Assembly (NCBI RefSeq): GCF_004010195.1
Contig: NC_057759.1
Span: forward strand, 5,796,936-5,856,455
Reading direction: 5' to 3'
Length of the DNA stretch: 59,520 nucleotides
DNA from: Chiloscyllium plagiosum
Taxonomy: Eukaryota
In this document: positions 748 through 46,776 of the stretch, piece by piece
Layout of the letters: each line of letters begins with the position of its first letter
How positions within the stretch are numbered: the first letter of the stretch is position 1
The notes under the pieces: generated by a model
What the model was told of the DNA's origin: nothing
Database searches by the model: none
What the model saw: the letters and a program-made list of their open reading frames with translations, nothing else
Translations under genes and position numbers: made by a program

Positions 748-1247
748 NNNNNNNNNNNNNNNNNNNNNNNNNNNNNNNNNNNNNNNNNNNNNNNNNNNNN
801 NNNNNNNNNNNNNNNNNNNNNNNNNNNNNNNNNNNNNNNNNNNNNNNNNNNNNNNNNNNNNNNNNNNNNNNNNNNNNNNNNNNNNNNNNNNNNNNNNNNN
901 NNNNNNNNNNNNNNNNNNNNNNNNNNNNNNNNNNNNNNNNNNNNNNNNNNNNNNNNNNNNNNNNNNNNNNNNNNNNNNNNNNNNNNNNNNNNNNNNNNNN
1001 NNNNNNNNNNNNNNNNNNNNNNNNNNNNNNNNNNNNNNNNNNNNNNNNNNNNNNNNNNNNNNNNNNNNNNNNNNNNNNNNNNNNNNNNNNNNNNNNNNNN
1101 NNNNNNNNNNNNNNNNNNNNNNNNNNNNNNNNNNNNNNNNNNNNNNNNNNNNNNNNNNNNNNNNNNNNNNNNNNNNNNNNNNNNNNNNNNNNNNNNNNNN
1201 NNNNNNNNNNNNNNNNNNNNNNNNNNNNNNNNNNNNNNNNNNNNNNN
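748..1247. other. Assembly gap (500 N)
   Basis: Run of exactly 500 N; likely a fixed-size scaffolding gap. Confidence 0.99.
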
Positions 1248-17877: not shown

Positions 17878-18590
17878 ACGTGTGAATACGTGTGTGGGTG
17901 CGTGTGAGAGTGTGTGTGGGAATGTGTGAGTGTGTGTGTGAGAGAGAGAGAGTGTGGGTGTTTGTGTGCATGTGTGTGAGAGACAGCGTGTGTGTGCGTT
18001 TGTGTATGCGAGAGTGTGTGTGTGCGTGAGGGTGTGTGAGTGTGTGGGGTGTGTGTGTGAGTGTGTGCATGTGCGTGTGGATGGTGGGTGTGTGAGTGTG
18101 CGAGTATGTGTGTGAGAATGTGTGTGTGANNNNNNNNNNNNNNNNNNNNNNNNNNNNNNNNNNNNNNNNNNNNNNNNNNNNNNNNNNNNNNNNNNNNNNN
18201 NNNNNNNNNNNNNNNNNNNNNNNNNNNNNNNNNNNNNNNNNNNNNNNNNNNNNNNNNNNNNNNNNNNNNNNNNNNNNNNNNNNNNNNNNNNNNNNNNNNN
18301 NNNNNNNNNNNNNNNNNNNNNNNNNNNNNNNNNNNNNNNNNNNNNNNNNNNNNNNNNNNNNNNNNNNNNNNNNNNNNNNNNNNNNNNNNNNNNNNNNNNN
18401 NNNNNNNNNNNNNNNNNNNNNNNNNNNNNNNNNNNNNNNNNNNNNNNTGTGTGTACGTGCATGTGCGTGTGTGTGGATATGTATGTGTGGATGTGTATGT
18501 GGATGTGTGTGGGTGTGTGTGTGTGTGGATGTGTGTGTGTAGGTGGGTGTGTATGTGTGTGTGGATGTATATGCATGTGTGTGCACGCAT
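17878..18590. repeat. (TG)n-rich microsatellite spanning a gap
   Basis: Visible tract. Confidence 0.95.
18130..18447. other. Assembly gap (318 N) inside a TG-rich repeat
   Basis: Run of N flanked by (TG)n on both sides. Confidence 0.99.
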
Positions 18591-29579: not shown

Positions 29580-29676
29580 CAGGAACTCCAACGGCGGCCA
29601 GGAAGGGGTAGTAGACCCTTTGAAATTTAACCAGGGTACTCTCGGTCTCGATGTCCAAAGTGTGACTCCTGTCCAT
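29580..29676 (-). CDS. GPR139-like class A GPCR, coding exon 1 (N-terminus and first half of TM1)
   Basis: ATG at 29676 gives MDRSHTLDIETESTLVKFQRVYYPFLAAVGVP, followed by G|gtaatt (phase-1 donor at 29579). G+CT from exon 2 gives Ala and restores the TM1 motif GVPANLL. An in-frame TAA lies upstream. Confidence 0.85.
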
Positions 29677-31992: not shown

Positions 31993-32492
31993 NNNNNNNN
32001 NNNNNNNNNNNNNNNNNNNNNNNNNNNNNNNNNNNNNNNNNNNNNNNNNNNNNNNNNNNNNNNNNNNNNNNNNNNNNNNNNNNNNNNNNNNNNNNNNNNN
32101 NNNNNNNNNNNNNNNNNNNNNNNNNNNNNNNNNNNNNNNNNNNNNNNNNNNNNNNNNNNNNNNNNNNNNNNNNNNNNNNNNNNNNNNNNNNNNNNNNNNN
32201 NNNNNNNNNNNNNNNNNNNNNNNNNNNNNNNNNNNNNNNNNNNNNNNNNNNNNNNNNNNNNNNNNNNNNNNNNNNNNNNNNNNNNNNNNNNNNNNNNNNN
32301 NNNNNNNNNNNNNNNNNNNNNNNNNNNNNNNNNNNNNNNNNNNNNNNNNNNNNNNNNNNNNNNNNNNNNNNNNNNNNNNNNNNNNNNNNNNNNNNNNNNN
32401 NNNNNNNNNNNNNNNNNNNNNNNNNNNNNNNNNNNNNNNNNNNNNNNNNNNNNNNNNNNNNNNNNNNNNNNNNNNNNNNNNNNNNNNNNNNN
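31993..32492. other. Assembly gap (500 N)
   Basis: Run of exactly 500 N between a (CT)n tract and a minisatellite. Confidence 0.99.
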
Positions 32493-32499
32493 TCTCAAT

Positions 32500-33165
32500 A
32501 CAGCCTGTGTGCCTCGATAATGCCTGGGAATGCTGAGCCTGCCCAGACACCCTGTACCCTGATACTGTCTGGGAATACTGAGCCTGCCCAGATACTCTGT
32601 CCCCGATACTGCCCGGGAATACTGAGCCTGCCCAGATACCTTGTACCCTGATACTGTCTGGGAATACTGAGCCTGCCCAGATACCCTGTACCCTGATACT
32701 GCCCTGGAATACTGCACCTGCCCAGATACCCTGTACCCTGATACTGCCCGGGAATGCTGAGCCTGTCCAGATACCCTGTACCCTGATACTGGAAGGGAAT
32801 GTTGAGCTCCCCACATACCCTGTACCCTGATACTGCCTGGGAATACTGAGCCTGCCCTGATACCTTGTACCCTGATACTGCCCTGGAATACTGCACCTGC
32901 CTAAATACCCTGTACCCTGATACTGCCTGGGAATACTGAGCCTGCCCAGATACCCTGTGCCCTAATACTGCCTGGGAATACTGAGCCTGCCCAGATAACC
33001 TGTGCCCTGATACTGCCTGGGAATACTAAGCCTGCCCAAATACCCTGTACCCTGCTACTGCCTGGGAATGCTGAGCTGCCCAGATACCCTGTACTCTGAT
33101 AATGCCCGGGAACATTGAGGCTGCCTGATGCTCTCTACCCTGATACTGTCTGGGAATACTGAGCG
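32500..33165. repeat. 45-bp minisatellite
   Basis: Unit gataccctgtaccctgatactgcctgggaatactgagcctgccca; gives the 15-aa periodicity seen in the ORF track. Confidence 0.92.
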
Positions 33166-33825
33166 TTCCCATGTACTGCCTGTGCACCTTGTTACTGCCT
33201 GTGTATCCCAATACTTCCAGTGTACCTTGATACTGCCCATGTACCTCGATACTTACAGTGTACCCTGATATTGCCCGTATACCCCGATGCTGCCTGTGTA
33301 CCCCAATACTGCTTGTGTACCCTGATACTGCACATGTATCCTGATACTGTCTGTGTACCTTGATACTCCCAGTGCACCCCGATACTGCCTGTATACCCCC
33401 ATACTGCCTGTGTACCCCGATACTGCCTGTGTACCCTGATACTGCCTATGTACCCTGATACTGCCCGTACACCCCAATACTGCCCATGTACCCCTACAGC
33501 CCATGTACCCAACATTACCCATGTACCCTGAAACTGCACATGTATCATGATACTGCCCATGCACCCCAATACGGCCCACGTACCCAATATTGGCCATCTA
33601 CCCTGATATTGCCTGTGTACCCCGATACTGTCTGTGTATCCCAAAATTGCCCTTGTACCCCGATATTGCCAGCGTACCCCAAAATTGCTCATGTACTCCA
33701 ATAATGCCCGTGCATCCCAATATTGCCTCTGTACCTCAGTACTGCCTGTGTGCTCCAATACTGCCCGTATACCCCAATATTGCCTCTGTACCTCAATACT
33801 GCCCATGTACCCCAATATTGCCCTA
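33166..33825. repeat. 19-bp minisatellite
   Basis: Unit gatactgcctgtgtaccct/c, decaying rightwards; a remnant lies at ~34310-34450. Confidence 0.88.
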
Positions 33826-36287: not shown

Positions 36288-36434
36288 GTATTCCCAGATG
36301 TCACTATCCTGTTCAGTGATGTGGTTGGTTTTACTCGGATTTGCAGTCACATCACGCCAATGCAAGTGGTTTCTATGTTGAACACGATGTATACACTGTT
36401 TGACACCCTGAGTGAGAAGCACAGAGTCTTCAAG
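36288..36434 (+). CDS. Atypical soluble guanylyl cyclase (Gyc-88E-like), catalytic-domain exon A
   Basis: ttttgcag|GTA...AAG|gttagt, 147 nt, phase 0/0: [49 protein letters not shown]. Contains the FSDxVGFT metal-binding motif. Confidence 0.93.
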
Positions 36435-37369
36435 GTTAGTGTTAATAATGGGGGAGTACTGCACAACAATCACATCAACTGCATCATGAAACCACGAAAA
36501 ATCTTCATTCCAAAACAGCACTCTGCTACTGCAAACCAAAAGCAACTTTCTTTTAAGCAGTTAGGACAGATTCCTGCCTGAGGTCCTGCAATTCATGCGA
36601 CACTCCTAAATCATTATACCCCTCACTTGGTCACAACGAGGTTAACTTAACACAAGACATCCCTTCCCTCGTGGATACCTTTCTTGGTTTCAATGTAACT
36701 TATCTTTTAAAAGATAACCAGGGTGTGGAGGAGTGAGTTTATTAGTTACTAAAATTATGAGGAAAAATAATAATTGGATTCATACAGATTAGAAATGAGA
36801 AATGAGGAAACTCATAGCAGCTTTAATGAAGAAAGACAAATCAATCTTTGACTTGTCCATGTGGAATAGAAAGTGAAATGTGTGGTCATTGCATGAGGGA
36901 TTTCAGGAGTGCTGACCTTGTCAGCTGAACCATTCATAAATCATTGAATTATACAATCCCTACAGTGTGGAAGCAGGCCATTTAGCCTATTGAGTCCACA
37001 CTGACCCTCCAACAAGCATCCCATTTAACCCACCCCCTATAACCCTGTAATTCCCAAAGCTAATCCACCTAGCTCAGGTCACTGTTGATCTAGGGTTTTG
37101 GCCAAGTTGGCTAGATGGAGTTGTCCTGTTTTCTTTTTGACAGTGGTTTTGATGCCTTCCAATAATCAATGAGAAAAAGAGACTTTGTCTTTTATCTTCA
37201 AACATGTAAGTATCAAGTGGATATTCTTCATCTGTGACCTTCACAGCAGACACTAGCTCAATAGAATTGGAACAACAGGCAAGCCCTCCGAGACCATGCT
37301 GCAGTCAGTTTTGAAACTGCTTGTCATGTGTAGTTTTGGAACCGGAGAACAAAACACGTCAAGGCCACA

Positions 37370-39150
37370 GTAATCTTCTCCCTTGCCTCCTTCAGTATCC
37401 TGGGATATATTCATTCATGGATATTGTTTAAAGCACCCAACATCTCTTTCTTAATATCAACATGCCCTAGAATAGCAACATGCTTCTCCTAATCTTACCC
37501 TCATCCACCTCCTTCTCCTTGGTAAATAGTGTTGTATTAAGGTTTTCACTCACTTCCTCTGGCTCCACACATAAATTCCCTCCTTTGTCCTATAGCTACT
37601 TTCTTGTTCCTGATGAATGTACATCATGGCTTGGAATCTTCCAGAATTCCAATTTTCAAGGTCATTTCATGGCCCCTTTTACCTGTCCTTATTCCTTGCT
37701 TAAGGTCTTTATATTCCTCAAGGACCTCCTCTAATTTCAGCTTGCTAAATCTTACATATGTTTTTTTTTCTTTTGAACTAAACGTTTAATATCTCTTGTC
37801 ATCTAACGTTCCCAAATGTTGCTATCCTTCGCTTTCATCCTCACAGGAAATGCTGGTCTCAAATTCTGATTGTCTGGCCTTTAAAAGATACCCACATGTC
37901 AGATGTGGATTTACTCCCAAAAATCCACCCCAATCTAATTTCTTCAGTTCCTGCCTAACACTCTCATAATTAACTTTCAGCCAATGTACAACACCTCATC
38001 TTCTGCCTACAGCCCGGACTCAACAGCGAGTTCTCCAATATCACATAGCTTCCCTTCTCATCCCCCGACTCCCTTCCTAGCCCCACCCATTTCTCTGACT
38101 GGCACTTCCAGCTATCAACTGGGTTAATTCCTCCCATCGACCAACCAGATCGTACCCTGTACTCATGTTCACCAATCCCCACCTCACTGTCCCTCCCTCT
38201 CCCCAACCAAAACCCTCCTCCACCCACTTTATCTGCAGTTCCCCTTACACCAACTCCCAGTCCTGAAGAAGGATTACACCTGAAATGTTGACTTCTCCAC
38301 CTCCTGATGCTGTTGCCTGCTGTGTTCTTCCTGCTTGTCTACAGCAAAGTTAACATTCACCCAAGGACCAGTCTTATTCTTATCTATAATTATCACCACT
38401 ACCCCAAAATGCTCCCTCACTATAATTTTGCTCACCTAGCCAGATTTATTCCCCAAAACAAGATCTATTACAGCTCCTTCCCAGTTGGACTATTTCCATA
38501 TTGTTTCAAGGAACCTTCCTGGGTGCACCGAACAAATTCTGCCTCATCTAAGTCCCTGGCAGTAAGGATGTCCCAGTCAATGTTGGGTAATTTTAAGTCC
38601 CTCACTACAACAAACCCTAAAAACTCTATTGATTTTATGTTTCCCTGATCTGCCTGCATATCCCACTGACTTTTGGGAGGCCTACAGTATAACTCCATCA
38701 TAGTGAATGCCCCTTTCTTATTCCTAACGTTCAACCAAAGTACTTTGCTGGATGGGCCCTCCATGATGTCATCTCTTCGTGTAGCTCTTTAATGAGTCAT
38801 GCATCTCCCCAATGACTTTTACATCTTTTTCATCCACATCTGAAACAAATAAACCTTGGAAGATTAAGCTGCCAGACCTGCCCTTCTTTCAACCAAGTTT
38901 CACATCGTAGTCCCATATATTAATCCAGGCTCTATCTGTTGTACTCCACACATTATAATAAATACACTTCAGACTGCCAGGCCCATCATGTTCATTACTC
39001 TAGTCCTGCCTGTTCACTGACTTGATTGAACCTCTACTGCTCCTCAATCACTCCACTTGCTGATGTACTGCTCTGATTCCCACCCCTTGCCACACCAGTT
39101 TAAACCCAACAAACACCAACAAGCCTCCCTGCAAGTATATTGGTGCCCCC
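37370..39150 (-). mobile_element. Decayed CR1 LINE (endonuclease region) with a PLE fragment at ~37985-38340
   Basis: LYCRPPKS, VVRDLKLPNIDW; the PLE fragment ends cctgaagaaggattacacctgaaatgttg. Confidence 0.75.
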
Positions 39151-39713
39151 ACCTGTTTAGGTGGGGACCAGTAACCGAGTCAATTTCTGTAAAGGAATAC
39201 CTGAAAGCACCCCCTTCAAGCTGGGGTTAAATTCTAATCTGTACAGTATTAATGAAAGCATCATCATGACCTCAGTCTTGCATTTATTGGTTGTTAGCTT
39301 GTCTCAGTGGATAACACCCTCACCTCCCAGATCATAGACTTAGAATCATAGAGGTCTACAAGTGAAATATTTCCTTCATTTCTACTGTCTCCAGACCCCC
39401 TTGTAATTTTATAGTCTGCAATTAAATCTCTCCTTAGCTTCTTGTGTTCTGAAGAAAATTAGGTCAGTCTTTCCCAGACTTTCTCATCACAAAAATTCTC
39501 CAGTTCCAGCAACACCCAGGTAAATTTCTATCAAACGCTCTTGAATCCAATCACACCTTTCTGACTGTGGTCTGACTGAGTTTTATACAGTTTCAGTAGT
39601 TCACCTCCCCATCTGACATACCCTGCACTTACAGATGACACCAGGGGAGAGGATGTAATGGGTCAAGTTCAGAGATTAACGCTTAGGATATGTTTCTAAC
39701 CCAATGTGTACAG

Positions 39714-39870
39714 GTTGAGACGATCGGAGATGCATACATGGTTGTTGCAGGAGTCCCAGAAAAAACTAAATATCATGCCCACAACATCTGTGACATGGCT
39801 CTAGACATGGTTCGGTCAATAGATCACCTCAAAGATCCATCCACTGGGAATAACATCCAAATCCGTGTTG
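39714..39870 (+). CDS. Atypical soluble guanylyl cyclase, catalytic-domain exon B
   Basis: tacag|GTT...G|gtgagt, 157 nt, phase 0/1: [52 protein letters not shown]. Completes the [10 protein letters not shown] motif with exon A. Confidence 0.93.
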
Positions 39871-39899
39871 GTGAGTCCCACAGTGCAGGGAAAAAAGGA

Positions 39900-40380
39900 T
39901 TACTGTGAAGTAGGAAGCACTGGTTGGTGGGAGTGGAAAATTGGAAATTATCTTAGGAATTGATGGGAATGCGAGAGTGTTAGGAAAAATTGGTGGTCAA
40001 TGGGAGTAGGAAGTGTTGGGAATGATATTTGGGATTGCAAATGCTTGATGGTGGTGGTGATAATTGGTGGGAATCAGAATACTGGGAACTATTAGCGGGA
40101 ATATTTTGAGGCACTGGGAATATTGATAATAATACATGGAAGTGCAGATAGTATGTGTGAGCCCAGCCAAAAGGTAGGAGTGAGGATAACAGGTGATATA
40201 GAGGATGTTCGATGGGTGTGGGAATTTTGATGGAAGTAAGAATTCTTACTGGGGATGAGAAATGCTGAGAATGATAGGTGACAGTTGGAACGTTTATTGG
40301 GAATGGAATGTTGGGAATGTTAGGAGGAAGTGAGTTAATTGGTGTGAATGTGGATAACAGGAGGACATATGGACAAGAGG
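39900..40380. repeat. G/A/T-rich (GGAATG/TTGG-like) low-complexity tract
   Basis: C-poor tract just after cyclase exon B. Confidence 0.7.
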
Positions 40381-40384
40381 TGGT

Positions 40385-40830
40385 ATAGAAACATAGTAAA
40401 TACGTGTAGGAGTAGGCTATTCAGCCCTTTGAGCCTGCTCAACCATTCAACATGATCATGGTTGATCATGCAATTTTTGTATGCCATTCCGACCCCCACC
40501 CCCCCTACTCCTTGATCCCTTTAATCACAAGTGCCAAGTCCAGCTCCCTCTTGAACTAATGAACTGGCTCCAACAGCTTCCTGTGGGAGAGAATTCGACA
40601 GGTTCACAACTCTCTGAGTGAAGAAATTCTTCCTCATCTCAGGCCTGAATGGCTTACCCCTTATTCTTAGACTGTGATCCCTAGTTCTGGACTTCCCCAA
40701 CAACGATAACATTCTCCCCCCATCTAGCCCTCCCAATCCCATTAGGATTTTATATGTTTCTATGAGATCCCCCCTCATTCTTCAAAATCCAGTGAGTGCA
40801 AGTCCAGTTGATTCAATCCTTCATATGTGA
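40385..40830 (-). mobile_element. CR1 LINE 3' fragment
   Basis: MRGDLIETYKIL...FFTQRVVNL. Confidence 0.88.
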
Positions 40831-42352
40831 TGTTGCGGATGGTTTAAACTAATATGACAGGGAGATGGGAACTAATAAAACAGGGAGGGGGAGAGAAGTA
40901 AAGTGGGGACAGAAACAAAGGACAGAAAAGGGAAAAAGCGAATGTGGAAGGCAGAGAAACCAGATAAAAATCAAAAAGGGCCACATTTCACAATGATTCT
41001 AAAAGGGCAATAAATGTCAAGTAAATGAGCCTGAAGGCTCTATCTCTCAATGCAAGGAGCATTTGTAATAAGATGGAAGAATTAACTGTGCTGACAGTTA
41101 TTAATAAATATGATGTAATTGGGATCTGAGACCTGGCATCAGGGTGACCAAGGATGGGAACTCTATGTCAGGGTTATTCAATTTTGAGGAAAGATGGCAA
41201 TGGGAGGTGGGGTAGTGTTGCACATTAAGGAGGAGATTAACACAATAGTAAGGAAAGACATTAGCCTCGACGATGTGGAATCTGTATGGGAGGAGCTGCG
41301 GAACACCAAAGGGATGAAGATGTTGGTGGGAATTGTGTACAGACTAGCAAACAGTGGTTTTGAGGCATCAAACAAGAAATTAGAGATGTGTACAGTAAGA
41401 GTACAACAGTTATGGGTGACTTCAATCTACATATTGATTGGACTAACCAAACTGGCAGCAATGCAATGGAGGAGAATTTTGTGGAATGTATGAGAGTTGG
41501 CTTCCTCAACCAATATGACAAGGAACCAACTGGAGAACAAGTCATCCTAGACTGGGTATTGTGTAACGAGAGGGGATTAATTAGCAACAAAATCCTTGAG
41601 GGAAGAGAGACCAAAATATGGTAGAATTCTTCATTCAGGTGGAGTGCAACACAATTAAATCTGAGACTAAGGTCCTGAACTTAAAGAAAACTAATTTTGG
41701 TGGTATGAGGCATGCATTGGCTGGGGTAAACTGGCTAAGGATACTTAACGGATTAGTGGTGGATAGGCAATGGCAGGCATTTACAGAACACATGGATGGA
41801 CTTCAATAATTGGACATCCCTGTCTGGTGTAAGGTGGCCTAACCATGGCTAACAAGGGATATCAGGAACAGTGGTAAAGCCAAAGCATATAAATTGGCCA
41901 GAAAAAGCAGCTAACACAACAACTGGGAGAAATTAAAAATTCAGCAGAGGAAGTCAAAGTGTTTAATTCGGAAAGGGAAAGTAGAATACAATAGTCAGCT
42001 TACGGAAAATGTACAAACTGACTGCAAAAGCTTCTGTACATAGGTGAAGAGAAAAGGGCTGATAAAGACAACTGCAGGTCCCTTACATTTAGAATCAGGT
42101 GAATCATAATGGACAACAAAGAGATGGCAGACCAGTTGAGCAAGTACTTTGCATCTGTCTTTACGAAGGAAGACACAGGTAACTTTCAGGAAATGCTAGG
42201 GGTCAGAGGGTCAAGCATGAAGGAGGAACTGAGAAAATCCTTATTAGTCAGGAAATGGAATTGGGGAGATTGATGGGATTAAAACCCAATAACTCCCCAG
42301 AGCCTGATGCTCTGCATCCCAGAGTATTTTATGAAGTGGGAGTATTTTAGTG

Positions 42353-42673
42353 GGTGGCACGGTGGCACAGTGGTTAGCACTGCTGCCTCACAGCACCAGA
42401 GACCCGGGTTCAATTCCCGCCTCAGGCGACTGACTGTGTGGAATTTGCACATTCTCCCCGTGTCTGCGTGGGTTTTCTCTGGGTGCTCCGGTTTCCTCCC
42501 ACAGTCCAAAAATGTGCAGATTAGGTGAATTGGCTATGCTAAATTGTCCGTAGTGTTAGGTGCAGGGGTAAATGTAGGGGAATGGGTCTGGGTGGGTGCG
42601 CTTCGGCGGGTCGGTGTGGACTTGTTGGGCTGAAGGGCCTGTTTCTACGGTGTAAGTAATCTAATCTAATCTA
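42353..42673 (+). mobile_element. HE1-type SINE, full length
   Basis: A/B boxes, core, (TAATC)n tail. Confidence 0.93.
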
Positions 42674-43575
42674 GAAGTGGCCATAGAAATAACAGATGCA
42701 TTGGTGACCATTTTCCAGCATTCTGTAGACACTGGAAGTGTTCCAATGGAATGGAGGGTAGCTAATGTAAATCCACTCTTTAAAAAAGGAGGCAGAGAGA
42801 AAATGGGGAATTTTAGATCATTTAGCCTGACATTGGTGAGGAAAATGGTGAAGTCAATTACTAATGAATTAATAACTTATAATTTGGAAATTAGTGACAG
42901 AATTTGTCCAAGTCAGCATCAATTCACTAAAGGGAAATCATGCTTGACAAATCTTTTGGAATTTTTTGAGGATGTGACTATTAGAGTGAATTAGTAGATG
43001 TTGTGTATCTGGACTTGTGAAAGGCTTTTGGCAAGATTCTACACAAGAGATTAGGAAGGAAAATTAAAGCTCATGGTGTCAGAGGTAATATATTGACATG
43101 GATGGAGAACTGGCGGGCAGGCAGAAAGCCGAGAATTGGAATAAACGGGTCCTTTTCAGAGTGATAAATGGGATACGGGTCCTTTTCAGAGTGGCAGGCA
43201 GTGATAAGTGGGATACTGGGACCTCAGCTGTTCACAATATACATTAATGATTTGGATGAAGGAATTGAGTAATATATCTCCAAATTTGTAGATGACACTA
43301 AACTGGGTGGCAGTGTGTGCTGTGAGGAGGCTGTTAAGAGGCTGCAGGGTGACTTGGACAGACTGGCTGAGTGGGCAAATATTTGGTAATTGCAATGTAA
43401 TGTGGACAAATATCCACTTTGGTCACAAAATCAGGAATGCAGATTTTTATCTGAATGGTGGCTGTTTAGGAAAAGGTGAGGTGACAGTGGCTGAAGGTTG
43501 ACATGGAGGTGCAGCATTCTGGATCAGTGGTGCTGGAAGGGCACAGCAATTCAGGCAGCATCCGAGGACAGGCAA

Positions 43576-43611
43576 AATCGACGTTTCGGGCAAAAGCCCT
43601 TCATCAGGAAT
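43576..43611 (-). ncRNA. Minimal hammerhead ribozyme motif (intact core, opposite strand)
   Basis: Reverse complement reads cctgatgaagggcttttgcccgaaacgtcgat. Confidence 0.8.
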
Positions 43612-43785
43612 AAAGGCAGAGAGCCTGAAGCGTGGAGAGATAAGCTACCCTCTCAGGCAACATGTTCCATATTTGACCCATCCCCTGGGTAATTTGCTTT
43701 TCCATCAGATCCTCGCGAAATGCTTCATTTTTCACTTTAACCTTAATTCAATTGGTCTAAGACATGCTTCAGGCTCTCTGCCTTT

Positions 43786-43821
43786 ATTCCTGATGAAGGG
43801 CTTTTGCCCGAAACGTCGATT
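43786..43821 (+). ncRNA. Minimal hammerhead ribozyme motif (intact core)
   Basis: CTGATGA (43790-43796), GGGC-TTTT-GCCC, GAAA (43810-43813), C-GTC. Confidence 0.8.
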
Positions 43822-44097
43822 TTGCCTGTCCTCGGATGCTGCCTGAATTGCTGTGCTCTTCCAGCACCACTGATCCAGAATCTGGTTTCCAGCATCTGCA
43901 GTCATTGTTTTTACCCCATGGAGGTGCAGCAGGCAATGAGGAAAGCTCATGGCATGCTGGCCTTCATTCTGAGAGGATTTGAGTATCAGAGTAAGGATAT
44001 CTTGCTGCAGTTATACAGGGCTTTGGTGAGGCCACACCTTGAGTATTGTATTTTGGTCTCCTAGTCTGAGGAAGGACATTCTTGCAATTGAGAGAGT

Positions 44098-45390
44098 CCC
44101 CAGGGCTGTGTGATCAGTTCATCCTGCTGACACACGACTGTGCAGCGATGCATCGGTTGAATCACATCATCAAGTTCGTGAATGATATGACTGTAGTGGA
44201 TCTCAGCACGAACAACGACTCAGTGTAAGGAGAGGAGGTGCAGCAGCTAACAGACTCGTACAAAGTGGACAAGATGCAAGAGATGGTTGTTGACTTCAGG
44301 AGGGCACGGAGCAACCACTCTCCACTGGGCATTGATGGCTCCCCCATGGAGATCGTGACGAGCACCAAATTTCTTGGCGTACACCTGGCGGAGAATCTCA
44401 CCTGGATCCTCAACACCAGCTCCATAGCCAAGTAAGATAAGCAGCATCTCTATTTTCTGTGCAGGCTGAGGAAAGCCCACTTCCCACCTCCTAATTCTCA
44501 CCACATTCTACAAAGCGTTTATTCAGAGCATCCTGAGCTGGTTCGGGAATTGCACCATCTTGGAGTGTAAGATGCTACAACGGATAGTGAGGACAGCTGA
44601 GAAGATCTTCGGGGTCTCTTTTCCCTCCATTACTGACATTTACACCGCACGCTGCATCTGAAAGGCTCAGAGCATTGTGGAAGACCCCATGCACCCCTCA
44701 CACAGATTCTTCTCCCTCCTGCCATCTGGCAGAAGATACCGGAGCGTTCGGTCTTTCATGGCCAGGCTGTGCACCAGTTTCTTCCCCATAGCCATCAGGC
44801 TCCTTAACACAGTATGAGTGGACACTTTCCCATCTGTCATTCTTTGAAACGATTAGAAAAATGTCTATTATTTATCATTTTGCTATTACACTGTAACTTA
44901 CATGTTTCAATTTTTTTTAGATTTAGATTACTTACAGTGTGGAAAAGGGCCCTTTGGCCTAACAAGTCCACACCGACCCTCTGAAGAGTAAGCCACCCAG
45001 ACCCATTCCACTACATTTATCCCTTCACCTAACACTAGCACGGCCAATTCACCTAACCTGCACATTTTTGGACCGTGGGAGGAAACCAGAGCATCTGGAG
45101 GAAACCCATGCAGACACGGGGAGAATGTGCAAACTCCACACAGACAGTTGCTTGAGGCAGGAATTGAACCCAGGTCTCTGGCGCTGTGAGGCAGCAGTGC
45201 TAACCACTGTGCCACTGTGCCACCGTGCCACCCAAAGTGTTTTGCACTTCTTATGCACTTTGTGCTGTGTATGATTGTGTAATTTGTGCTGTCCATGTAG
45301 CTCCCTCAGTTTTGGAGGAATGCTGTCTCGTTTTTACTGTATCAGTTATATACAGTACAAATGACAAGTAAAAAGCTGCTCTACTCTATT
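44098..45390 (+). mobile_element. Rex1/Babar-like LINE 3' part with an inserted HE1 SINE (~44918-45232, minus)
   Basis: KMQEMVVDFRRA...KFLGVHLAENLTW, typical of this clade's RT C-terminus; the SINE matches the family consensus. Confidence 0.78.
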
Positions 45391-46254
45391 CTTCTCCACC
45401 GAAGGTTCACCAGACTGATTTGCAGGATGGCAGGACTGACATATGAGGAAAGATTGGGTTGACTGGGCTTGCACTCACTGGAATTTAGAAGAATGAGGGG
45501 GGAGCTCATTGAAACATACAAAATCCTGATGGGATTGTATAGGCTAGATGGGAAGAATGTTCCTGATGTTGGGGAAATCCAGAACTCAAGGTCACAACAT
45601 AGGGGGCAAGTCATACTGGACTGAGGATCTCTTCACTCATAGAGTTGTGAACCCGTGGAATTCTCTCCCACAGGAAGCTGTTGGGTTGAGTTCATTATAT
45701 ATAGTCAAGAGGGAGCCGGACATGGCGGGGAGGGTGAGAATGGGACACTTGGATTTCATGATCATCCATGATCATATTGAAGGGCCTATTCCTGCACCTA
45801 TTTTCTGTGTTTATCTGCTGACTGTGACATTATAGTTCAATTTCCTTCTACTTTGTCCTTGTGCCTTCAGCAGCTGCAGTAGTTCATTCCTCATCCGACT
45901 GCCTTACCTCGTTGTTAATTGCCCTTCCCACCAAAGTCCAGTACTCACCAAAACCTATAGTTAATCCTCCAGCAGCACTTCAACCGCAAACCAGCTCTTC
46001 TCAAAATGGTCACTCCACTATAGCTTGCCACTTTTAATTCACTCCTGGGCAGCCGCTGGTTGCTGAGCAGATTCCTTTCAGAATCCTCGTCCTCCTCCTC
46101 TATTGCTTCTCAGCAGTGCTCTCTGTTGGATGCTTTTGTACTGTTCATTGACAGCAGCTCTCCTGTGCTCTCCTCCTTGGTCATGTTGACTGAGCCATCG
46201 CCTCCCAGAATCCTCCTCAGTTGCCTCTCAGCAGCACCGTCTGTTGATCAAAGA

Positions 46255-46620
46255 ATGTTTGGTAGGAGTGGGAATTCTTAGCGAGAGTGGGGAATGCTGG
46301 GAATGATAGTGGGAGTGGGAATGTTTGGTGGGAATGGAAATGTTAGGAATGGTAGGTGAGAGTGTGAATAATAGGTGGTATTGGAAATGTTTGGTGGAAG
46401 TTGAATTGCTGGAAATGATTGGTAGGAGTGGCCATGATTGATGGGAGTGGGACTGTTGGTAATGATTGGTGGGAGTGGGAATGTTTGGTGGAAGATGGAA
46501 TGTTTGGTGGAAGAGGGAATGTTGGGAATGATAGGAGTGTCGATGATAGTTGGCATTGAGGATGTTTGATGAGAGTTGGACTGATTATCGGAAGTGGGAA
46601 TGTTGGGAATGAATGCTTGG
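46255..46620. repeat. G/A/T-rich (GGGAATGTTGG-like) low-complexity tract
   Basis: C-poor tract just before cyclase exon C. Confidence 0.75.
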
Positions 46621-46666
46621 AGTTCCACCGAGTTCCAACCTCACTTCCTTTTGTCTTGCTGACTAG

Positions 46667-46776
46667 GTATCCACTCTGGGATGGTAGTAGCAGGGGTGGT
46701 GGGTCACAGGATGCCACGGTTTGGACTGTATGGAGACACTGTCCACACTGCATCAGCCATGGAAAGTAATGGCAAG
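46667..46776 (+). CDS. Atypical soluble guanylyl cyclase, catalytic-domain exon C
   Basis: gactag|GT...AAG|gtaagt, 110 nt, phase 1/0: [37 protein letters not shown]. Phase is compatible with exon B. Confidence 0.92.

Follow-up and report, generated by a model that had tools for sequence, protein, structure and literature searches.

Do jawed fishes possess a soluble guanylate cyclase of the O2-sensing lineage known from insects and nematodes, and how could such an enzyme work if part of its active site is missing? This question is raised by three exons of a cyclase gene in a 59,520-nucleotide stretch of the genome of the shark Chiloscyllium plagiosum (hereafter the window; NCBI RefSeq assembly GCF_004010195.1, contig NC_057759.1, positions 5,796,936 to 5,856,455 of the forward strand). 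We propose that the window gene, of a type here called paralogue A, encodes one subunit of an obligate and probably membrane-anchored heterodimer with a second fish paralogue, B, in which a single active site is controlled by O2 on the haem of A and falling O2 raises cyclic guanosine monophosphate (cGMP). We give this chain as a whole a probability of about 0.55. The features of the locus are listed below in window positions, with residues mapped via alignments of human beta-1, GC-C, NPR1 and AC5/AC8; the beta-1 numbering was obtained by counting along the alignment.

36288..36434, plus strand: cyclase exon 1, 147 nucleotides, 49 codons, phase 0-0, with AG acceptor and GT donor
36318-36320, plus strand: codon of the first metal-binding Asp in exon 1 (residue mapping); the phosphate-binding loop of exon 1 is intact
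36435..39713, plus strand: intron 1, GT-AG, phase 0
39714..39870, plus strand: cyclase exon 2, 157 nucleotides, 52 codons plus 1 nucleotide, phase 0-1, with AG acceptor and GT donor
39717-39719, plus strand: base-recognition Glu in exon 2 (residue mapping)
39729-39731, plus strand: second metal-binding Asp, of the Gly-Asp pair, in exon 2 (residue mapping)
39864-39866, plus strand: triphosphate Arg in exon 2 (residue mapping)
39871..46666, plus strand: intron 2, GT-AG, phase 1
46667..46776, plus strand: cyclase exon 3, 110 nucleotides, 2 nucleotides plus 36 codons, phase 1-0, with AG acceptor and GT donor
46723-46725, plus strand: Gly at the place of human beta-1 Cys541 in exon 3 (alignment)
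46744-46746, plus strand: His at the place of human beta-1 Asn548 in exon 3 (alignment)
46756-46758, plus strand: Ala at the place of human beta-1 Arg552 in exon 3 (alignment)

Joined together, the three exons form a stop-free reading frame of 414 nucleotides (138 codons), and each exon singly matches the Pfam Guanylate_cyc model at consecutive positions (7-53, 54-104 and 106-141, with E values of 5e-14, 4e-13 and 1e-11, respectively). The encoded peptide is identical over all 138 aa to a Hemiscyllium ocellatum protein automatically named 'soluble guanylate cyclase 88E-like' (P0003; 100% identity), and shares 98.6% identity with its Stegostoma counterpart and 96% with coelacanth and salmon orthologues, which points to a carpet shark or a near relative as the source of the window. 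Furthermore, the boundaries of exon 2 are the same in 5/5 A-type and 10/10 B-type open reading frames (ORFs) inspected in raw contigs. Sequence comparison alone, in the form of protein identity and the shared exon 2 boundaries (15/15 ORFs), confirms that the three exons are real, far beyond chance. A tblastn search with 14 full or partial homologues identified no further exon of the cyclase gene in the 59.5-kb window at E<1 except weak chance matches, and no RNA run was present among the 18 rows listed for sequencing runs matched with exon 2. The initial annotation had described three GT-AG exons with compatible phases and a stop-free cyclase domain, and had located the H-NOX domain outside the visible sequence; both descriptions agree with these results.

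Matches to exon 2 carry the automatic names '88E-like' and 'gcy-31-like', originate from sharks, rays, gar, teleosts and coelacanth, and fall into two identity bands of approximately 88-100% (A, the window type) and approximately 83-85% (B). The window peptide is 68% identical to Gyc-88E of Drosophila tropicalis (P0126), compared with 57% for crocodile GUCY1B2 (P0170) and 45% for primate GUCY1B1 (P0208). For phylogenetic placement, tree rows were drawn from a 50%-representative protein search (23 of them named), and all careful trees were calculated under LG+G4 with no mixture model; alpha subunits were represented by two invertebrate alpha-like rows, and no row was a named Gyc-89D, GCY-31, vertebrate alpha or receptor cyclase. 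In the 42-row careful tree, the window peptide is placed within A (100/100) and A within the atypical clade together with Drosophila Gyc-88E (100/100), with which a 76-row FastTree concurs. The separation of this clade from the beta-2, beta-1 and alpha-like rows received 100/100 in two careful trees, and a constraint uniting A with beta-2 was rejected by the approximately unbiased (AU) test (p-AU 2.6e-12). Judged from these alignments and trees, membership of the window gene in the Gyc-88E clade is as good as certain, in line with the earlier proposal, made with such a phylogeny in view, that it stands closer to Gyc-88E than to vertebrate GUCY1A or GUCY1B.

Several alternative identities were rejected. 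GUCY1B2 is contradicted by the trees and the AU test as well as by the full catalytic set of that clade, which the window gene lacks, and a receptor cyclase by the presence of H-NOX and HNOBA domains in an A orthologue. Membership among the classical nitric oxide (NO)-receptor alpha and beta-1 subunits disagrees with the clade and with the apolar distal pocket of beta-1, where A has Tyr (alpha being represented by the two invertebrate alpha-like rows only). The gene is also no Gyc-88E proper, i.e. a homodimer-competent enzyme with the full catalytic set in one chain, as Gly, His and Ala stand in place of Cys, Asn and Arg.

The interior of the atypical clade is weakly supported in the first two careful trees, and in the best tree with long rows (Styela, Lingula2 and Branchiostoma g3) B is attracted to these rows. 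Leaving out 9 of the 28 rows (long branches, beta outgroups and two redundant rows) unites amphioxus, A and B at 96/95 in a tree that matches animal phylogeny, with protostomes, hemichordates, and amphioxus plus A plus B. On this phylogenetic basis, A and B are co-orthologues of Gyc-88E from a chordate duplication, which was finished before the chimaera diverged because Callorhinchus has both (P0377, P0316). In amphioxus (P0349, P0351, P0363, P0364, P0371), the Gyc-88E orthologue has been duplicated separately (100/98); copy one carries Tyr at the place of the catalytic Arg, and copy two is complete but has annotated isoforms with a replaced Cys/Arg segment. Half-site subunits may thus have been approached here along a parallel path.

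In the class III cyclase site, one monomer contributes two Asp and an Arg, and its partner contributes Glu, Cys, Asn, Arg and Lys (PMC2576301). To compare these residues, 453 records of at least 90 aa were tabulated, of which 87 were classed as A and 129 as B by cyclase-domain identity; as they include isoforms and many related teleosts, the counts measure invariance and not independent events. In A, the guanine-binding Cys, the catalytic Asn and the catalytic Arg are replaced by Gly, His and Ala in 78/78 records covering the site, and five A-type records beyond the class thresholds have the same pattern. Since all of these records share it, Gly/His/Ala is no lesion peculiar to the window copy. 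The neighbouring Phe is likewise replaced and the beta7-beta8 loop altered. At the position of this Phe, two residues after the lost Cys, cartilaginous fishes, gar and coelacanth have Tyr and teleosts have His (33 Tyr, 44 His and 1 Phe), a lineage switch in the predicted dead site. The metal side of A is retained without exception, including the first Asp (78/78), the Gly-Asp pair with the second Asp (85/85), the triphosphate Arg (86/86) and an intact phosphate loop (encoded by exons 1 and 2 of the window).

B shows the opposite pattern on its base side, with Cys kept in 110/110 records, Asn and Arg both in 103/103 (7 more gapped), and Glu and Lys also retained. Its phosphate loop contains Lys and Asn in 110/110 records, and Arg replaces the Gly preceding the second Asp in 127/128. 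This Gly is present in 36/36 hand-picked invertebrate Gyc-88E-like proteins and in the 4 beta-2, 5 beta-1 and 2 alpha-like rows. The phosphate-loop Thr is invariant in the 36 invertebrate proteins, with Asn, Ser or Gly at its place in beta-1, and the loop Gly varies among active relatives (Thr in 14/36 invertebrate proteins), so its change in B proves little alone. The same invertebrate proteins carry both Asp, Glu, Cys and Asn in 36/36 cases and the catalytic Arg in 35/36. It follows from the class III architecture that an A-A pair would have no complete site and an A-B pair one, and on these residues A is very probably inactive on its own, unlike Gyc-88E. The predicted complementarity is clear for A; in B, the phosphate loop and the Gly-Asp hairpin carry changes, yet both Asp and the Arg are retained.

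The full-length A orthologue P0003 has the domain order H-NOX (HNOB), HNOBA (PAS plus coiled coil) and class III cyclase. Among aligned A records, the proximal His is present in 69/69 and the YxSxR motif is conserved (Tyr 70/70, Ser 66/66, Arg 63/65); both features are also retained in B. At the distal position, corresponding to beta-1 Ile145 by alignment, Tyr occurs in 62/63 aligned A and 36/36 invertebrate records, Phe in 99/100 B records, and Ile in beta-2 (6/6) and beta-1 (5/5). The proximal His, YxSxR and distal Tyr that the initial annotation had proposed to look for are all found in the A orthologue. A also carries Gln four residues past the distal Tyr (the beta-1 Ile149 place; 63/67 aligned), as do the invertebrate proteins, and Val at the place of beta-1 Cys78 (67/67 aligned), where the invertebrate enzymes likewise lack Cys. 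The distal Tyr is a recognised determinant that stabilises haem-bound O2 (10.1101/2022.02.14.480389; PMC12154584), and loss of such cysteines has been linked to NO insensitivity (PMC1435932). By analogy with these systems, regulation of the fish enzyme by O2 is reasonably likely. Furthermore, a Cys four residues from the C-terminus in 51/56 A and 82/89 B records of at least 680 aa is a likely prenylation signal in both paralogues.

A orthologues span chimaera, sharks, rays, ray-finned fishes and coelacanth, and the lineage is thus neither limited to sharks nor absent from annotation; '88E-like' and 'gcy-31-like' genes are annotated across this range. Range was read from the best 120 of 715 matches in a search with full-length coelacanth B, the best 120 of 1932 with coelacanth A, and cluster members, of which at most 15 per cluster, of up to 339, were listed. 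Among the matches listed, at least 38 species (counted by eye) are represented by name for A as well as B, including the chimaera, Hemiscyllium (P0003, P0337), gar and coelacanth, and jawed fishes are followed in order by amphioxus, molluscs, a brachiopod and insects; zebrafish was not seen by name among them. The tetrapod proteins among the named representatives are GUCY1B2 and GUCY1B1. This distribution suggests that A and B were kept jointly in water-breathing jawed vertebrates and lost jointly on land. Both genes, with the same motifs, are also present in the Antarctic icefish Pseudochaenichthys georgianus (P0054, P0312), which is haemoglobin-less.

We hypothesize that an ancestral homodimeric Gyc-88E-like gene was duplicated prior to the chimaera/bony-fish split and that the two copies divided the catalytic work, independently repeating the alpha/beta organisation of soluble guanylate cyclase (sGC). 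A would supply the metal-binding half-site and B the Glu, Cys, Asn, Arg and Lys of one complete site, and all odd residues of A and B would meet at the second site of the A-B pair. The substitutions in A and those in B map to one pseudo-symmetric site, which predicts that the two form a heterodimer with a single functional site, and on this residue pattern B is probably the partner of A. The distal Tyr and Gln might allow the H-NOX domain of A to bind O2, and loss of O2 would lead to higher activity by analogy with Gyc-88E. Anchored to the membrane through the predicted C-terminal prenylation, the pair would signal hypoxia in few neurons or sensory cells.

Several observations weigh against this proposal. 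B retains both Asp and the triphosphate Arg, and as it keeps both Asp, a B-B homodimer may be active, with A using another partner. The H-NOX domain lies outside the window, its residues being readings from orthologues, and the direction of O2 regulation is taken from the fly. The timing of the A/B duplication is loose, because A and B are sisters with just 77/61 in the reduced tree and are split when long-branch rows are included. No tetrapod, lungfish or lamprey names occur among the matches or cluster members listed, which are hit lists and not genome searches. The sole expression record found is that of an '88E-like' (gyc88e-like) transcript, high in pikeperch brain, with A and B not distinguished (PMC12673963). 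Two supplementary files with zebrafish gill single-cell marker tables (PMC9203529) contain no 'gucy', 'gcy' or 'guanylate' entry, which is uninformative as zebrafish A/B symbols were not identified, and the main text of a Tachysurus gill paper does not mention A/B-type cyclases.

The complementary residues could also be read with other partners. A might be an alpha-like subunit that pairs with GUCY1B1 or GUCY1B2 and grafts O2 sensitivity onto the NO-receptor pathway, with B as a separate homodimer. Beta-1 (5/5) and beta-2 (4/4) would supply Glu, Cys, Asn and Arg, and the two Asp kept by B fit a B homodimer; however, the invariant changes in B affect exactly those elements that a B-B site needs, namely the phosphate loop and the Gly-Asp hairpin. 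A and B furthermore have common exon 2 boundaries, co-occur in the species counted above and are both absent among the tetrapod names listed, where beta-1 and beta-2 persist, which makes this arrangement improbable. Still more doubtful is a role of A as a pseudo-enzyme that either serves as a scaffold binding O2 or lowers the activity of B, which would otherwise work as a homodimer. The three replaced catalytic residues, the replaced Phe and the altered beta7-beta8 loop would agree with it, whereas the invariant metal side of A is what a working half-site would be expected to keep. That the window copy is merely a decaying fragment of three exons has next to no plausibility. Although the 36 kb upstream and the 12.7 kb downstream contain no further exon, assembly gaps lie within the window (748-1247, 18130-18447 and 31993-32492, one of them 3.8 kb upstream of exon 1), the splice sites are intact and no stop interrupts the frame, the peptide matches a full-length carpet-shark model with 100% identity and bony-fish proteins with 96%, and the 'dead' residues are common to all orthologues; a pseudogene was rejected on this basis.

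A different possibility accepts the A/B heterodimer but makes NO or carbon monoxide (CO), acting via the Phe-pocket haem of B, or redox state the main regulator instead of O2. B combines beta-type catalytic residues with the distal Phe, and activation of classical sGC is driven by the haem of the beta subunit. A, however, nearly always keeps Tyr and Gln together, as do the invertebrate enzymes that bind O2, and its lack of a Cys at the Cys78 place belongs to the changes tied to NO insensitivity (PMC1435932); we regard this possibility as unlikely. Equally tentative is an extension of the O2-controlled A/B heterodimer to a two-haem, gas-integrating cyclase of jawed fishes, in which A would read O2, B would read NO or CO and the shared site would sum both, with the second site serving as a conserved allosteric pocket. 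The residues substituted in this second site, His in A together with Lys and Arg in B, show the same invariance as catalytic residues. Such an enzyme could be a direct O2 sensor of an aquatic type of chemosensory or central neuron, the pair having been lost at the move to air.

Other features of the locus concern its assembly and surroundings. A-type shark gene models (P0002, P0003, P0019) have odd ends, one running past the exon 2 donor into the intron and two terminating a few residues beyond exon 3; in several assemblies the A locus may therefore contain long introns or gaps. Tandem arrays (45 bp x 14.7 copies and 19 bp x 34 copies) occupy window positions 32516-33823, directly after an assembly gap. 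The minus strand encodes a rhodopsin-family G-protein-coupled receptor (GPCR), apparently in two exons (29676-29580 and 21321-20350), with a short first exon (ATG at 29676, GT donor) and a main ORF matching Pfam 7tm_1 (E 7e-15); it presumably resembles the GPR139-like receptors expanded in sharks. As this receptor lies antisense within the 36 kb that lack an upstream cyclase exon, either a very long intron of the cyclase gene surrounds it, or a scaffold join at the gap 31993-32492 has placed it there.

A literature search, with most subscription journals outside its coverage, found no study of a fish A or B gene, of the pair or of its residues. The fish '88E-like' gene itself is already in automatic annotations; new here, from sequence comparison, are the predicted complementary A/B pair, the Tyr/Phe haem split and the apparently fish-limited range. 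The mechanism by which fish chemoreceptor cells detect hypoxia and pass on the signal is described as an unsolved problem (PMC9203529). A is a haem enzyme of a proven insect and nematode O2-sensor lineage, with 96% identity between shark and bony fishes over the window peptide, and a specific predicted partner and defined residues make the question of the fish O2 sensor testable. Expressed alone, A or B could look inactive, which may explain why they were overlooked. If the proposal is true, an alpha/beta-like split arose independently from a homodimeric cyclase, O2 level is turned into cGMP by a fish system apparently missing from land vertebrates, and A and B are candidates for a joint loss during the transition from water to land.

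Among known systems, Drosophila Gyc-88E and Manduca MsGC-beta3 resemble A in clade, domain order, proximal His, YxSxR, distal Tyr and Gln, and Gyc-88E shares 68% identity with A over the window peptide. Gyc-88E works as a homodimer or with Gyc-89Da/Db and mediates hypoxia responses of fly neurons (10.1101/2024.01.20.576342). The initial annotation had likened the shark gene to it, but the Cys, Asn and Arg of Gyc-88E are missing from A, visibly so in the third exon, and A should need a partner; unlike the fly partner Gyc-89D, fish B is a close co-orthologue of Gyc-88E. Paired O2-sensing soluble cyclases are also known from C. elegans, i.e. GCY-31/GCY-33 and GCY-35/GCY-36 (10.64898/2026.04.28.721222; PMC5196021). 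The nematode pairs and the predicted fish pair are both O2-sensor-type soluble cyclases, arising from separate duplications. In the C. bovis protein P0166, which we take to be GCY-33-like, the metal Asp residues are gone altogether; B, by contrast, has both. Nor do the C. elegans soluble cyclases form one class, as had been assumed: GCY-31/33 lie inside the insect atypical clade, and GCY-35-type enzymes, unlike fish A and B, group with beta-2 (PMC1435932), a shape that our 42-row careful tree shares. In the available part of that source the atypical clade is described with insect and nematode members only, and the accessible part of a review of teleost sGC names only classical subunits (PMC9137985).

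Gucy1b2 is needed for low-O2 responses of olfactory neurons in mouse (PMC5196021), and in zebrafish it is expressed in sparse olfactory neurons (PMC4480006; Gucy1b2 is also treated in PMC4396857). Like A by prediction, it is a vertebrate soluble cyclase tied to low O2, but it belongs to another clade (by the AU test above), has the full catalytic set and carries a distal Ile instead of Tyr. The earlier statement that the shark lineage has no described mammalian counterpart therefore stands for orthologues, none of which is mammalian among the matches listed, but not for low-O2 sensing, which mammals achieve with Gucy1b2 of the other lineage. The vertebrate NO receptor alpha-1/beta-1 (PDB 6JT0) is a heterodimer with one complete site, in which A mirrors alpha by lacking Asn and Arg and B mirrors beta. 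It differs from the A/B pair in its lineage, in the haem-binding residues, kept in both fish subunits, and at the distal position, where beta-1 Ile145 contrasts with the Tyr of A; moreover, the two alpha-like rows keep the base-binding Cys that A has lost.

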